Shown here piece by piece: positions 36,427 through 40,145 of a DNA stretch of 51,940 bases (its first letter is position 1; every line of letters begins with the position of its first letter). The position numbers and the translations under genes are program-made. The notes beneath the pieces are model-generated. The model saw nothing but the letters and a program-made list of their open reading frames with translations, did no database searches and was not told the origin of the DNA. The stretch comes from Escherichia phage MLP1: the sequence record NC_079176, one strand, 5' to 3'.

Positions 36427-36443
36427 CATTAATTGGATGTGAA
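36427..36443 (+). promoter_or_regulatory. 17-bp motif copy CATTAaTTGGATGTGAA
   Basis: 78 bp upstream of ATG 36521. Confidence 0.4.
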
Positions 36444-36859: not shown

Positions 36860-37724
36860 ATCGATCTGGCGTGCACTGGAAGTTGTCCGGTGCTGCCTTG
36901 AACCCATTCCCAAGAGTGAGTGGGCTTCAATGAGCATTCTTGTGATTAGAGTTGGGAGGTAGGCCGATGCCCAATCTCGTGGCCCCGACAAGAGTGTTCA
37001 TTGAAGTAGTTTTCTGAGTCTTACGACGGGCCTAAACTGCCTGAAGTTATTGCGACTGTTTTATTCATTTAAAATAAATGCAAACGATTCTGAAATGCGA
37101 GTTGCAGCTTAATTAAATTTAAGTTCTCTCCGTGGTCTTCCAATCCCATGTAACCAAATTTGGCGCATTGTGGCTTCGAGATGTGATTAATAAATCGGAG
37201 CAATAATTAATTTGTATTCTGCGATGTAATGCAGACTTAAGTCCCTCAGTGCGCGTAGGGATGTGACAGAGTACAAACTTAATTATGCAGTTGGATATTT
37301 CCGGAGGACGGACGAGCACACTGGAATGTCTTCAATTGGTTTAGTGTGAGAAGCTATGCCAATGTGGAACGTAACTCCTTGAGGAAGTGCTCCTTTGGAT
37401 TTCCCTCCACACAGGAATCTCAAGCCTGTGGCAGCGACTTCGAAGCTGCACTGTATAACCTAATTCGCCCTAAAGTGAATTGCCCTGAGTATGGAAATAA
37501 ACTGCTCTAACCAATGGTTTCCACAACGGTGGAATAAATTAGGTTGCCTGTTGGTACTTGGGTTCAACACCTGCTTGCACTCGCAAAGTAGTGCCTCGTA
37601 CCTGAGATGAAGTGAGTCGGGACCATCAATCCACGGCAGGCCGAAGATACCAAACAGGCGGCTCACTGATTCTACAAGCCTCGCAGTTCGGGAAAACCTG
37701 CGTTACCAAAACCCACCAAATTTT

Positions 37725-37817
37725 GGACGAGTAGCTCAGAAGGTCTGCTCCAGAGCTTAGTCAGGTAGAGCAATCTGTTCGACAGATGTGTCGTTGGTTC
37801 GAACCCAACCTCGTCCA
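37725..37817 (+). tRNA. tRNA-like gene with insertion; isotype undetermined
   Basis: Perfect 7-bp acceptor pairing GGACGAG/CTCGTCC, canonical T-arm GTTGG-TTCGAAC-CCAAC, UA at positions 8-9, D-arm TAGCTCAG...GGTAGAGC split by about 22 nt; candidate anticodon stem ATCTG/CAGAT encloses only 5 nt. Confidence 0.45.
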
Positions 37818-37843
37818 CCCTTAACAACAAACATGGAGTCCTC

Positions 37844-37984
37844 ATGGATTTTGATGCACTTGATAACTTAGACTTCGGTGCTGCCGAAGAGGCAATTGAA
37901 GAACTTAAGAAGAAGCAGGACGAAGAAGCAATCGTTCCTGGTGCTGGTGATAACGACTGCTCAAGTGGTGCGTGTGCCATCTAA
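37844..37984 (+). CDS. small acidic peptide (46 aa), hypothetical
   Basis: GGAG 5 nt upstream of ATG; below ORF-track cutoff. Confidence 0.3.
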   Translation: MDFDALDNLDFGAAEEAIEELKKKQDEEAIVPGAGDNDCSSGACAI

Positions 37985-37992
37985 GGTGATTC

Positions 37993-38229
37993 ATGCAACA
38001 GCTTAAGGCAATATTTCTTGGCGTCTTGACTGCATTGGGAATTCTATTTGCAGTGTTCCTCAAAGGCAGAAGCTCAGGCAAAGCCGAGGAGCGTCAGGAA
38101 GCCAAAGAGAAGCAATTCGATTCGTTAAAAGAATCTATCGAGATTAAATCGCATGTTCAGAAAGAAGTGTCTAGCAGTTCTGATAGCAATGTCGATAGTG
38201 AGTTGCTCTCAAAGTGGGTTCGTAAGTGA
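37993..38229 (+). CDS. i-spanin (Rz-like) candidate
   Basis: N-terminal transmembrane segment AIFLGVLTALGILFAVFL then charged helical region; overlapped by a lipoprotein ORF. Confidence 0.5.
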   Translation: MQQLKAIFLGVLTALGILFAVFLKGRSSGKAEERQEAKEKQFDSLKESIEIKSHVQKEVSSSSDSNVDSELLSKWVRK

Positions 38230-38365
38230 TTACTGCTTGATTGCACAACCAATCTATTTGGATGTTGCAGAAGTGAAAGTTTTGTCGCGCGAAACCAAAA
38301 CCCAGATTTTAGTCCACAATGAAACGTGGGCACAAAAGTGTTCTAACTTACCCGACAGTGAGTGA
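38153..38365 (+). CDS. o-spanin (Rz1-like outer-membrane lipoprotein) candidate
   Basis: Signal peptide with lipobox-like IVSC; starts inside the i-spanin gene in another frame. Confidence 0.5.
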   Translation: MFRKKCLAVLIAMSIVSCSQSGFVSDYCLIAQPIYLDVAEVKVLSRETKTQILVHNETWAQKCSNLPDSE

Positions 38366-39215
38366 ACAAATGCTCGCCATCGCATAAACAACATTTGGCA
38401 GTCCGGTACGGGACTTTAAATACACGTATATTATAGTCGAGGGAGTGTGCGACTTTAAATAACGAGACTCTAGCTACTTGTAGCATAGTAGGTGTAATTC
38501 CTGCAATTGCTCTGGGCATAACAATTGAAATTGCTGCCTCCGAGGACGGAAGCCCCGTATTGAATGCGTGAAATTCAGGTAGTCACTTCCTAGAACAGTG
38601 GCCGGGAACAGACCTAGACAAAAGTGCTTGAGAACGTTAGCTCTGTCTTGCCAGCATTAATGGCACGTTGGCCGCGTAAAGGCCACAGCGTCTGACCAAC
38701 GTATCGGCCACCAAATTCAATGGATTCGTAGAGTTAATGAAACCTGCACGATGGGATAGGGATGAAGCATCCGAGGCCGACTGTGTAATTGTGAACGCGG
38801 AGTTCACCGAATCCACCATTTTCCAAACAGTTATGCCTCTGTTCAAAAGGCTCAAGTTAGCGTCTGGCATACCGTAGCGATACGGCTCAGTTGCGCTGAT
38901 TGTGATGTGTCGAAAGAAAGTTCAGGCTTTCATTTGAGCTACTCCTCTTCTCGAAGTTAGCTGGATTCAAAATCCAGACTATGTTCCTATTCACATGAAA
39001 TATGCAAGCCAGGGTTCTTAATATCTGACATAGGTATTAAGCGGGTTTATACTTTTCCCCGATGGTCCCCATAAACAAGGCTGATTCACTTGGGCGGTTC
39101 GAATCAAATTTAATAAGTGTCTTGGCCGCAGTGGAAACACCATTTAAGCCAATATATTGTAATGTTCGTAATAGTCCACGTCAGGGCACTTACTTAAATT
39201 TAACTGGAGAGAAAC

Positions 39216-39437
39216 ATGAAAACTGCTGAAATTGCCGAAGAGATTTACAAGGCCGTAATAGCCAACCAAATTACCAGTGAAGTCCTGCACCTGAATCTTG
39301 AAGAAGTTCGCAATGCCTTTGGTGGTTTTGCAATCTTGTCAATAGAAGCTGCGGAAGCACTAACAAACACGTACAATCAGCGCGAATATGAAAAGCGTTC
39401 TGTACTAAATGCGTCGCTACAGGCGTCATTAAAATAA
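39216..39437 (+). CDS. hypothetical protein
   Basis: GGAGAG ribosome-binding site. Confidence 0.4.
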   Translation: MKTAEIAEEIYKAVIANQITSEVLHLNLEEVRNAFGGFAILSIEAAEALTNTYNQREYEKRSVLNASLQASLK

Positions 39438-39494
39438 TACCATTGTTATGGTGCGGAGCTAATTAATCTCCCACCATATGAACCGGAGAGCAAA

Positions 39495-40145
39495 ATGTTT
39501 ACTGTCACACTCGTTGACCACATGGGCAGCGACCTAACAACTGTTAATGCTGCGCGAGTTTCTTACGGTGCAGAGTCTCACGAAATGTCGCTGCGTGACG
39601 AGAAGTTGATTGAATTTCTTGCCAAGCATAAACACATTACGCCGTTCCGTCATGCACAAGTAACTCTTCGTTGCAAAGCTCCAATCTTCATTGCACGTCA
39701 GCTTGGCAAACACCAAACTGGCTTTAGTTGGAATGAAGTAAGCCGTCGCTACAAAGATGGTGAAGCAATCGAAATCGAATTCTTCATTCCAGATACTGTG
39801 TTTGGTCGTCCTGAAAAGTTGATGACTCAATCTGCACAACCATTGCCACAAGATTTTGCTGATGACATTAAATATCGTATGGAAAGCCATAACAAGGCTT
39901 GCATCGCAGAATATGAAACGTTACTTGGTTTGGGGATTGCTCCAGAGCAAGCTCGCATGGTGTTGCCACAATCCATGATGACTGAATGGGTTTGGACTGG
40001 CTCTCTTTATGGCTGGGCATCTATGTATAATCAACGTTCCCACAAACATGCACAGTATGAAGTTCGCTTGTTTGCGGAAGAAGTGAGTAAAATTATGTCA
40101 GAACTATTTCCGGTTTGCTGGAAGGCTCTGACCAACCAGGAATAA
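39495..40145 (+). CDS. thyX: flavin-dependent thymidylate synthase
   Basis: ThyX signature RHAQVTLRCKAPIFIARQLGKHQTGFSWNEVSRRY. Confidence 0.85.
   Translation: MFTVTLVDHMGSDLTTVNAARVSYGAESHEMSLRDEKLIEFLAKHKHITPFRHAQVTLRCKAPIFIARQLGKHQTGFSWNEVSRRYKDGEAIEIEFFIPDTVFGRPEKLMTQSAQPLPQDFADDIKYRMESHNKACIAEYETLLGLGIAPEQARMVLPQSMMTEWVWTGSLYGWASMYNQRSHKHAQYEVRLFAEEVSKIMSELFPVCWKALTNQE

Follow-up and report, generated by a model that had tools for sequence, protein, structure and literature searches.

Positions 38366-39215 of Escherichia phage MLP1 (record NC_079176; "the window" is this whole sequence of 51,940 nucleotides (nt)) form a gap between open reading frames (ORFs), and we consider it very probable that this gap is an island of structured, functional non-coding RNA read from the + strand. 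Comparison with related phages shows that selection keeps about 25 helices in three parts, which are a mosaic 5' domain, a facultative tRNA mimic that we call TLE-1 (tRNA-like element 1), and a universal core of roughly 285 nt. The fold is well supported by this comparative evidence, and we see in the island a good candidate for a class of structured phage RNA not yet described. By DNA searches, the window belongs to Carltongylesvirus (Cleopatravirinae, Chaseviridae), in the phiEcoM-GJ1 group.

A preliminary description of the sequence had listed this place as the second ORF-free stretch, between the spanins and the replication module. Our scan for + strand ORFs of at least 60 amino acids (aa) returned the identical 850 nt, which rank second in length in the window after 36860-37992, and the flanks are as described, with an Rz-like spanin upstream and ThyX (PF02511) and a primase/helicase downstream. 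All genes of the window are on the + strand. Inside the gap the longest ORFs have 46 and 55 aa on the + strand and 77 aa on the - strand. Five gap ORFs (40-77 aa) match no PHROG family at E<=0.01, and the flanking 73-aa ORF (39216-39434) matches phrog_32967. We read the gap as non-coding because its ORFs have no PHROG match and because 1-nt insertions or deletions (indels) distinguish close relatives within it. The homologous gap of phiEcoM-GJ1 is 1,066 base pairs (bp) long, lies between the Rz-like spanin (gp31) and gp32, and is unannotated; unannotated gaps of 0.85-1.5 kb between the spanins and thyX/primase occur in Carltongylesvirus, Faunusvirus, Sabourvirus, Suwonvirus and Loessnervirus, with sizes of 0.88 to 1.5 kb in the last four. 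Elsewhere the annotations in the gap are small "hypothetical" ORFs whose positions are inconsistent between records. The literature that we covered on these phages, which did not include the original phiEcoM-GJ1 paper, makes no mention of the gap. The ICTV profile and the papers on ST32, PP101, Yersinia phages and "Tiny" mention only an occasional tRNA-Arg.

The region is 80-97% identical in about 40 records of Escherichia and Yersinia phages, and 79 phage records match it at the DNA level. Aligning the gaps of six genera gives a mosaic, with a 3' block shared by all, a 5' block shared in part, and a variable site between the two. The 3' block (~285 nt) is overall only 50-60% identical between clades, yet it holds invariant runs, namely UCUGGCAUA, CUCCU and UGAAAUAUGCAAG-N-CAGGGUU. 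GAAAUAU-R-CAAG and AGGG are the same in 27 of 27 aligned sequences, save for a compensated G-to-A change and a 1-nt insertion of the GJ1 type, and the U flanking AGGG varies only in the truncated locus L065.

Twelve helices of the core (P1 to P12, Table 1) were derived by hand between invariant anchors. The pseudoknot of P1 and P2, which reads ACAG-UUAU-GCCU-CUGU-UCAAA-AGGC in the window, is compensated in both helices: P1 becomes GUGG/CCAC in Faunus, AUAG/CUAU in PM1 and AAAG/CUUU in locus L014, and P2 becomes ACGU/ACGU in Fifi44, GCAU/AUGC in PM1 and UUCUU/AAGAA in 4HA13. The strands of the long-range helix P5 (CUGGCAUA and UAUGCAAG) are invariant save in the Aeromonas clade, where CUGGUAUA stands with UAUACAAG, a double change from C-G to U-A. 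In P9, A-U is swapped for U-A within the genus, and the Loessnervirus form of this helix has 7 bp that are 100% paired with three compensatory positions (UAAUACG/CGUAUUA, UGUUGCG/CGCAACA and UUAUUACG/CGUAAUAA).

To count the pairs, we used a MAFFT alignment of 17 sequences outside Loessnervirus and treated Loessnervirus (8 sequences) separately, because its rows are misaligned in the middle of the core and its sequences have extra hairpins and other registers. As controls, we slid the partners by 1-3 columns or made 500 shuffles. Among the 17 sequences, the 62 pairs of the core were 95.0% paired against 31-47% in the slid controls, and 30 pairs had changed on both sides, against 6-14 in the slid controls and 12.8 +/- 2.3 in the shuffles. 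The covariation score was 0.259, compared with 0.04-0.10, and none of the 500 shuffles reached the observed values. The Loessnervirus count gave 92.9% paired (29-38% in the controls), with 16 pairs changed on both sides. We take the + strand to be the one that folds because G.U cells outnumber A.C cells by 37 to 9 on it.

Searches with nhmmer profiles found the core once per genome in every Cleopatravirinae locus examined, as well as in an unclassified clade of Aeromonas phages (phiA050, L067 and L083), and gave no match in the 12.7-kb Nefertitivirinae-type loci of Vibrio phage VPs20 and Aeromonas phage ZPAH140. An exact scan of IMG/VR for the UGAAAUAUGCAAG motif returned only 12 contigs, all of 52-57 kb. 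With degenerate motifs, metagenomes yielded 120 stretches, and both core motifs were present in only 6 contigs, all of them chasevirus-like. The degenerate scan of 185,579 species genomes yielded 59 stretches, none of them with both core motifs, and blastn with the region found no match in 5,426 complete E. coli genomes; after these searches of metagenomes, species genomes and E. coli genomes we dropped the idea of a host or prophage origin. Judged by these searches, the RNA island is specific to Cleopatravirinae plus the unclassified Aeromonas phage clade.

Possible contacts of loops in the core and the 3' tail were also considered. For the invariant CUCCU in the loop of P7 we tried two partners and accepted neither. 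AGGG (39009-39012) is invariant, as is CUCCU, so no covariation can be read, and the loop GGGAG of the 5' domain hairpin HpA changes to GUGAA or GCGAA while CUCCU stays constant. We also observed two hairpin loops of the form CUUGG(G/C)CG(G/C), CUUGGGCGG at 39089-39097 and CUUGGCCGC at 39121-39129. The second contains the palindrome GGCC, which is also found in the first loop of Loessnervirus and PM1 (CUUGGCCG). The two loops could be involved in loop-loop (kissing) contacts or offer a protein site that they share, and their UUGG could pair with the CCAA of ends of the form ...CCACCAAAU.

TLE-1 has no anticodon, and its CCA end lies 6 nt before the core begins. All 11 distinct homologues (78-101 nt) have a perfect 7-bp terminal stem followed by N-CCA. 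Unguided RNAalifold on these 11 sequences gave exactly the acceptor stem, the stacked hairpin and the inner helix, with (A/G)CCA unpaired. In the count, 97.7% of the cells were paired against 22-41% in the slid controls, the acceptor stem and the stacked hairpin reached 100%, and the covariation score of 0.534 (at most 0.10 in the controls) was matched in 0 of 500 shuffles. Compensation is seen in acceptor stems such as GGAUUCG/CGAAUCC, GGAGUCG/CGACUCC and GCGCUCG/CGAGUGC. TLE-1 corresponds to just the upper half of a tRNA, with a 7-bp acceptor stem on which a 5-bp arm stacks, the pair G1-C72, an unpaired discriminator (R73) and CCA at the 3' end. It lacks a D arm, an anticodon arm and a T-loop consensus, and this explains why neither ARAGORN nor RF00005 detects the element. 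With our covariance model of TLE-1 (R1), the window has a single copy (100 bits, E 3e-22) and 9 other loci searched have a match. The model found no TLE-1 in 4HA13, PM1, phiA050, Aioli and FXie, and we call the element facultative because several genomes have no match to R1.

A good substrate for bacterial RNase P has U(-1), G1-C72, a stacked acceptor/T helix of 12 bp, and R73-C74-C75-A76. The nucleotide 5' of TLE-1 is U in 10 of the 11 distinct homologues, and we infer from features of this kind that TLE-1 may be an RNase P substrate. Several modules in the gap terminate in CCACCA followed by A/U, and the window has 9 occurrences of CCACCAWWT where 2.1 are expected, 3 of the 9 being in the two ORF-free stretches (37713, 38708 and 38813).

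In relatives, true or reduced tRNAs are found in the homologous gap. PM1 has a true tRNA-Cys(GCA) with an encoded CCA (47 bits; L005 2718-2788) at the junction of the 5' domain and the core, and locus L008 has a similar tRNA-Cys at ~2853-2926. The tRNA of Fifi44 (38 bits; L006 3164-3233) has a shortened anticodon arm, and those of Y2 and L014 are similar. PM1, phiA050 and L083 also have minimal elements made of an acceptor and a T arm, for example GGCGGC...GAGG-UUCGAUU-CCUC-GCUGCC-ACCA. A side observation is that the stem of 3-4 bp that replaces the anticodon arm in the Loessnervirus tRNA carries the loop UGAAAU, which echoes the invariant AUGAAAUAUGC of the core.

The other ORF-free stretch (36860-37992) also has links to tRNAs, and GJ1 and ST32 have an annotated tRNA there. 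At 37727-37822 we noticed a tRNA-like sequence, GGACGAG...CUCGUCC-A-CCC, with a perfect T arm (GUUGGUUCGAACCCAAC), a D-region insert of ~23 nt and an "anticodon" loop of 5 nt; ARAGORN is silent on it in the window. The GJ1 copy is annotated as a tRNA-Arg that "may contain an intron", and ARAGORN calls it tRNA-Leu(cag). The same stretch contains CCACCAAAU at 37713 and a segment like part of the second gap of Fifi44 (GCCUCGCAGUUC...ACCUGCGUUA). The presence of these two suggests that the ORF-free stretches are one RNA island split by the spanin genes.

The 5' domain is a chain of small hairpins whose order and content differ between genera. With nhmmer we found the 38433-38630 domain, whole or partial, in the Cleopatravirinae loci examined. 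Three of the hairpins (HpA, CACU/AGUG and the one with the AACAGA loop) also emerge from RNAalifold on 17 homologues. A count of five hairpins in these homologues gave 94.7% of the cells paired against 26-48% in the slid controls, with 9 pairs changed on both sides (0-3 in the controls) and a score that none of 500 shuffles reached. The four structure counts together have 93-98% of their cells paired, compared with 22-48% in the slid controls; each of them has 9-30 pairs changed on both sides and a covariation score that was matched in 0 of 500 shuffles. Sequence conservation in the domain is strongest at AGUCG-AGGGAGUGUG-CGACU-UUAAAUAACGAGA (38435-38467).

The island may start inside the spanin gene, because AACUUACCCGACA overlaps the last codons (N-L-P-D) and the stop of the o-spanin ORF (38153-38365), yet is non-coding in Loessnervirus. 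ACTTACCCGACA is identical in the window, GJ1, Faunus, 4HA13 and phiA050, and in Fifi44, Y2 and L014 it is non-coding in the middle of the gap with complementary arms, such as CGAAAC/GUUUCG. The identity of AACUUACCCGACA between genera at the nucleotide level suggests an RNA or DNA signal that overlaps the o-spanin coding sequence. As a repeated signal we rejected ACTTACCCGACA, which occurs a single time in the window.

A hairpin of the form AGUC(N)...(N)GAC(U) followed by UUAAAU(A) is present in three copies, at 38404-38428, 38435-38464 and 39172-39200, with no repeats elsewhere in the window. The middle copy, GUGUGCGACUUUAAAUAACGAGA, is nearly invariant across genera, and 13 of its 23 positions, including CGACT and GAGA, agree with the T7 promoter (TAATACGACTCACTATAGGGAGA). 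This copy may act for the island as a private promoter or as a processing signal. We discarded the conserved GCGACTTTAAATAACGAG as a genome-wide phage promoter, as it is unique in the window up to 3 mismatches, and the looser matches to GACTTTAAA as promoter copies, as they share no extended similarity.

Table 1. Features of the RNA island and related elements in the window.
Feature	Position	Strand	Details
Tentative first hairpin	38340-38367	+	GUUC...GAAC, loop with AACUUACCCGACA (38345-38357); sequence reading
5' mosaic domain (Block A)	38366-38721	+	chain of small hairpins; comparative
HpA	38435-38454	+	AGUCG/CGACU, then invariant UUAAAUAACGAG; RNAalifold, 17 homologues
CUUG-loop hairpin	38473-38484	+	
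AGG/CCU hairpin	38490-38502	+	
GGCA/UGCC hairpin	38515-38538	+	loop CAAUUGAAA
UCCG/CGGA hairpin	38539-38550	+	
CACU/AGUG hairpin	38584-38600	+	loop UCCUAGAAC; RNAalifold, 17 homologues
Hairpin with AACAGA loop	38602-38617	+	RNAalifold, 17 homologues
GGCCG/CGGCC hairpin	38670-38709	+	
TLE-1	38722-38818	+	97 nt, tRNA-like, no anticodon; RNAalifold, counts, covariance model
TLE-1 acceptor stem	38722-28/38808-14	+	GGAUUCG/CGAAUCC, 7 bp
TLE-1 inner helix	38745-48/38784-87	+	4 bp
TLE-1 stacked hairpin	38791-38807	+	GUGAA-CGCGGAG-UUCAC, 5 bp
TLE-1 3' end	38815; 38816-18	+	discriminator A38815; DNA-encoded CCA
Universal core RNA (Block B)	38824-39105	+	~285 nt; anchors read by hand, pair counts
P1	38827-30/38839-42	+	H-type pseudoknot with P2
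P2	38835-38/38848-51	+	H-type pseudoknot with P1
P3	38859-62/38894-97	+	weakly supported
P4	38872-76/38881-85	+	GCGA loop
P5	38864-71/39001-08	+	long-range helix, joins CUGGCAUA and UAUGCAAG
P6	38916-20/38927-31	+	
P7	38933-38/38950-55	+	loop with invariant CUCCU (38942-46)
P8	38961-66/38972-77	+	CUGGAU/AUCCAG, loop UCAAA; hairpin of the preliminary description (38961-38977); window sequence, core fold
P9	38901-05/38991-95	+	encloses P6, P7 and P8
P10	39017-23/39035-41	+	
P11	39042-45/39058-61	+	
P12	39083-87/39101-05	+	
Most conserved motif	38996-39016	+	UGAAAUAUGCAAG-N-CAGGGUU; P5 3' strand and invariant single-stranded AGGGUU
3' tail/spacer	39106-39215	+	ribosome-binding site (RBS) of the 73-aa ORF at 39204-39218, sequence CUGGAGAG
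Possible hairpin	39117-39140	+	GUGU...ACAC, loop CUUGGCCGCAGUGGAA; by eye; AGCA/UGCU instead in Faunus
acATTAGTTGGAtgtgaa copies	23957, 26533, 30160, 34464, 36096, 36428	+	near-copies 26277, 27395, 32846, 34320

Detectors of known RNAs stay silent on the window. We ran cmscan with 4227 families of Rfam 15 on 38100-39500 at E<=10, and on the loci of six relatives at E<=1. The only match in 38100-39500 was a chance one to the long non-coding RNA SOX2OT, and the relatives gave only tRNAs plus weak tmRNA-like chance matches outside the gap. That no complete tRNA can be folded in the stretch, as the preliminary description had found by eye, agrees with ARAGORN, which reports 0 tRNA or tmRNA genes in the window, and with Rfam 15, in which no family matches the whole window at gathering score. 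These negatives are informative for tRNAs because ARAGORN and Rfam (RF00005) do find them in the gaps of relatives. The minimum free energy of the region is another measure that gives no signal and will be taken up below.

The same description had pointed out a hairpin resembling an anticodon arm, CTGGA-TTCAAAA-TCCAG, which is located exactly at 38961-38977. A lone 5-bp hairpin is unremarkable, and its reading as an anticodon arm is not supported, given that the size and sequence of the loop vary, that the hairpin is absent in L008, and that it is nested in P9 and P5 as helix P8 of the core. TLE-1 is situated 240 nt upstream of it. The counterpart of P8 in 4HA13 is UGAGUA-AUCGAC-UACUCA, and length and sequence vary in the relatives. 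P8 is 84% paired in the MAFFT-based count, a value limited by indels; P6, P8 and P10 are variable hairpins that MAFFT aligns imperfectly. So of the earlier suspicion of an RNA gene, to be checked with tRNA and ncRNA tools and by comparative genomics, the tRNA cloverleaf at the hairpin is not supported, and the tools (ARAGORN, Rfam) list no RNA gene. The idea of a non-coding RNA is supported because conservation and compensatory base changes are strong despite the silent detectors.

Several known classes were tried for the gap and rejected. For tmRNA, neither ARAGORN (including permuted tmRNA) nor the Rfam tmRNA families have a match in the gap, position 3-70 of TLE-1 is A-U in all but one of the 11 sequences, which has G-U, and no tag frame is conserved (the frame started by GCG stops after 5 codons in the window and is open in Loessnervirus). 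For a group I intron there is no Rfam match, and the gap is flanked by an intact spanin ORF that has its stop codon and by a second, independent ORF that has its own RBS. For a riboswitch or T-box leader there is no Rfam match and no terminator-like site on the + strand.

Concerning transcription, sigma-70 promoters and intrinsic terminators in the gap are at or below chance level, with no terminator-like site on the + strand. A motif of ~18 nt, acATTAGTTGGAtgtgaa, has 15 matches to its 10-nt core in the window, 14 of them on the + strand, against 3.4 expected. No copy lies in the gap, and the last one (36428) is upstream of both ORF-free stretches. The motif corresponds to the "putative phage promoters" annotated in phiEcoM-GJ1, and the ICTV profile states that the promoters of chaseviruses have not been identified. 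We regard acATTAGTTGGAtgtgaa as a strong candidate for the promoter of the T7-like RNA polymerase of the phage.

We somewhat favor a full model that combines processing at TLE-1 with a core that would act in trans. The island would have no promoter of its own and would probably be co-transcribed rightward with its neighbors from the acATTAGTTGGAtgtgaa copy at 36428. TLE-1 would probably serve as a built-in processing signal at which RNase P and 3' trimming enzymes release a stable tRNA-like RNA, and this would set the 5' end of the core RNA, 6 nt past the CCA. The core would then act, probably in the middle of infection, as a folded RNA or an RNA-protein particle, as has been proposed for the phage RNAs GOLLD and ROOL. 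Candidate roles are an effect on translation or tRNA metabolism and a decoy against defenses that target tRNAs. A bolder version, which we offer tentatively and hold to be rather less likely than the model itself, is an undescribed class of large phage RNA in which the core and the anticodon-less, CCA-ending mimics form a stable particle that acts on the tRNA or translation machinery. Such a particle could, for example, be a sponge for host factors or defense toxins that recognize the tRNA acceptor or CCA end, or, by analogy with GOLLD and ROOL, a multimeric RNA body.

There are a number of points that weigh against a functional RNA processed in this way. Shuffled sequences reach a minimum free energy as good as that of the region (z = -0.03 on the + strand and -0.42 on the - strand), so folding energy is uninformative and the signal is comparative. 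The core fold was derived from the sequences on which it was counted, which inflates the proportion of cells paired; this bias weighs less on the covariation measures and on the independent set from Loessnervirus. P3 crosses P5 and shows little covariation. TLE-1 is missing in several genomes that keep the core and so is not required for making the core RNA. The ends of the RNA, its processing and its stability are things that we infer, and the reordering of modules between genera fits several small RNAs equally as well as one large RNA. Finally, the distance from the core to the next gene downstream is always 58-140 nt, a position that a cis-acting leader would also explain.

This last alternative, in which the core is a structured 5' untranslated region of the replication module (the 73-aa ORF, thyX and the primase/helicase), is the best of the rivals, although we think it unlikely. 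The core is on the same strand as the next ORF in every genome examined, and no terminator-like site separates them. In a variant of this idea the RBS might be exposed or hidden, with the CUCCU loop as an anti-Shine-Dalgarno sequence; CUCCU is indeed invariant in a hairpin loop and the next gene has CUGGAGAG as its RBS. However, the spacer that leads from the core to the start codon shows little conservation between genera, and we found no conserved alternative pairing with the RBS (sequestration of the RBS was not formally tested). No riboswitch or T-box model matches, and known translational operators need far less than an RNA that measures 285 to more than 750 nt and has twelve helices, a pseudoknot and tRNA-like modules. 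Somewhat less likely again is a replication origin, either as a priming transcript like ColE1 RNA II or as DNA hairpins recognized by the adjacent primase/helicase. The place directly upstream of the replication genes fits an origin, the cumulative GC skew flattens at ~38.4-39.6 kb, and there is a parallel in T7-type phages, where replication starts at transcribed, promoter-linked origins. But the skew changes little, in a sequence whose genes all share one strand anyway, and iterons, direct repeats and an AT-rich unwinding block are absent (GC is 42-48%). The 37 G.U against 9 A.C cells favor RNA over structures in double-stranded or - strand DNA, and we know of no role at origins for an H-type pseudoknot or for tRNA mimics ending in CCA.

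That the stretch might be a graveyard of decaying tRNA genes and remnants, conserved through close kinship only, is brought to mind by the real and half-degenerate tRNAs at the same place in relatives, the variable content of modules and the unremarkable folding energy. We give this very little credence, since the 21-nt motif and others are invariant between genera whose cores are 50-60% identical, neutral decay would have destroyed a pairing of 93-98% rather than leave dozens of compensatory double changes, and every Cleopatravirinae genome examined has one copy of the core. Small proteins missed by ORF callers are, to us, the least credible explanation of all. "Hypothetical protein" ORFs of 40-130 aa are annotated in the gap of JL1, FXie-2024a, PP101, EaPF9 and 2KOFFS, and both strands of the window contain ORFs of 46-77 aa. 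None of the five window ORFs found a PHROG family, though, and the annotated ORFs differ in place and strand between records, close relatives have 1-nt indels and insertions of at least 80 nt inside them, and the substitutions in stems are compensatory.

Downstream of the core, in the 3' tail, conservation falls to the within-genus level except for CUUGGCCGCAGU, which is common to the window, Faunus and L067, and to phiA050 with two changes. A few observations on the records themselves were made along the way. FXie-2024a, and apparently also PYps3T/4T/16T, PO103-1 and DE15, give the homologue of the 73-aa ORF the name "tail tape measure protein", which is likely an annotation error. The primase of "Staphylococcus phage Pel53" (host S. 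hyicus) is 99% identical to that of the window, which is likely a record error. Genes for HNH homing endonucleases are in or next to the matched region (gap and flanks) in Shigella phage 2KOFFS and Escherichia phage DE15, and in Aioli (L200 1-168), and segB is located within the tRNA cluster of T4 (NC_000866 annotation). RNA islands may be preferred landing sites of homing endonucleases.

Few RNAs are as poorly understood as the large, intricately folded phage RNAs associated with tRNA genes, such as GOLLD and ROOL. The three-dimensional structures of these two were solved in 2025, their function is unknown, and their hosts are awkward or known from metagenomes only. If the bolder version above is true, the island would be the first tRNA-associated ornate RNA in lytic phages that are engineerable and propagate on E. 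coli K-12. The coliphages that carry it are virulent and have a T7-like RNA polymerase, and some of them, such as phage flopper, were isolated on E. coli K-12 MG1655. Such tractable hosts would make it possible to test the function of the RNA, its tie to tRNAs, and whether anticodon-less mimics are processing signals or decoys. There is also an impact on annotation, as this kilobase is blank or filled with spurious small ORFs in more than 100 deposited chasevirus genomes.

Because no Rfam family matches, the island is by its sequence not a member of the GOLLD, ROOL, tmRNA, tRNA, group I intron or riboswitch classes, and what can be compared are likenesses in kind. The tRNA genes of chaseviruses share its neighborhood, as with the tRNA-Cys in the gap of PM1 and L008, but the gap of the window has no cloverleaf. 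TLE-1 resembles the tRNA-like domain of tmRNA in its acceptor with a stacked T-like arm, encoded CCA and replaced body, and in having pseudoknots nearby; it differs in that its 3-70 pair is A-U and not the G.U identity pair for alanine, and in the missing conserved tag frame.

In T4, the maturation of two RNAs, rnaC and rnaD, depends on RNase P. The first of them has a perfect T arm (CCGGGUUCGAAUCCCGG) next to its 3' end on a body that is not a tRNA, and, as in TLE-1 and the mini elements of PM1 and phiA050, an anticodon is lacking. Both RNAs (species 1 and 2) are small and stable and are encoded beside the phage tRNA genes (NC_000866 annotation). T4 68500-74500 had no match to any of our three nhmmer profiles (core, TLE-1, 5' domain), and R1 found nothing in T4 either. 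TLE-1 has an encoded CCA and no T-loop consensus, unlike the T4 RNAs, and T4 has no counterpart of the 285-nt core.

ROOL is a large, pseudoknotted RNA of phages and prophages that is often near tRNA islands, is possibly co-transcribed with them and has an unknown function (PMC5737381, PMC12286853). The island has no Rfam match to it and a different secondary structure. GOLLD, likewise of unknown function, is phage-encoded, several hundred nt long and contains pseudoknots (PMC12286853), and there are differences here as well. Its covariance model matched neither the window (E<=10) nor the six relatives (E<=1), its hosts are Lactobacillales, Mycobacterium and marine bacteria, compared with Enterobacterales and Aeromonas for the island, and its length of more than 800 nt compares with ~285 nt for the core. 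GOLLD forms a cage of 14 subunits and ROOL an octameric one. In GOLLD the 3' region is universally conserved and the 5' region less so, and tRNAs lie nearby, sometimes in the linker (PMC12286853; PMC5737381). The island has the same architecture and context, with a universal 3' core, a mosaic 5' domain, and tRNA or tRNA-like modules at the junction, a likeness in kind and not by homology. By this analogy, GOLLD is the closest of the known RNAs to the island.

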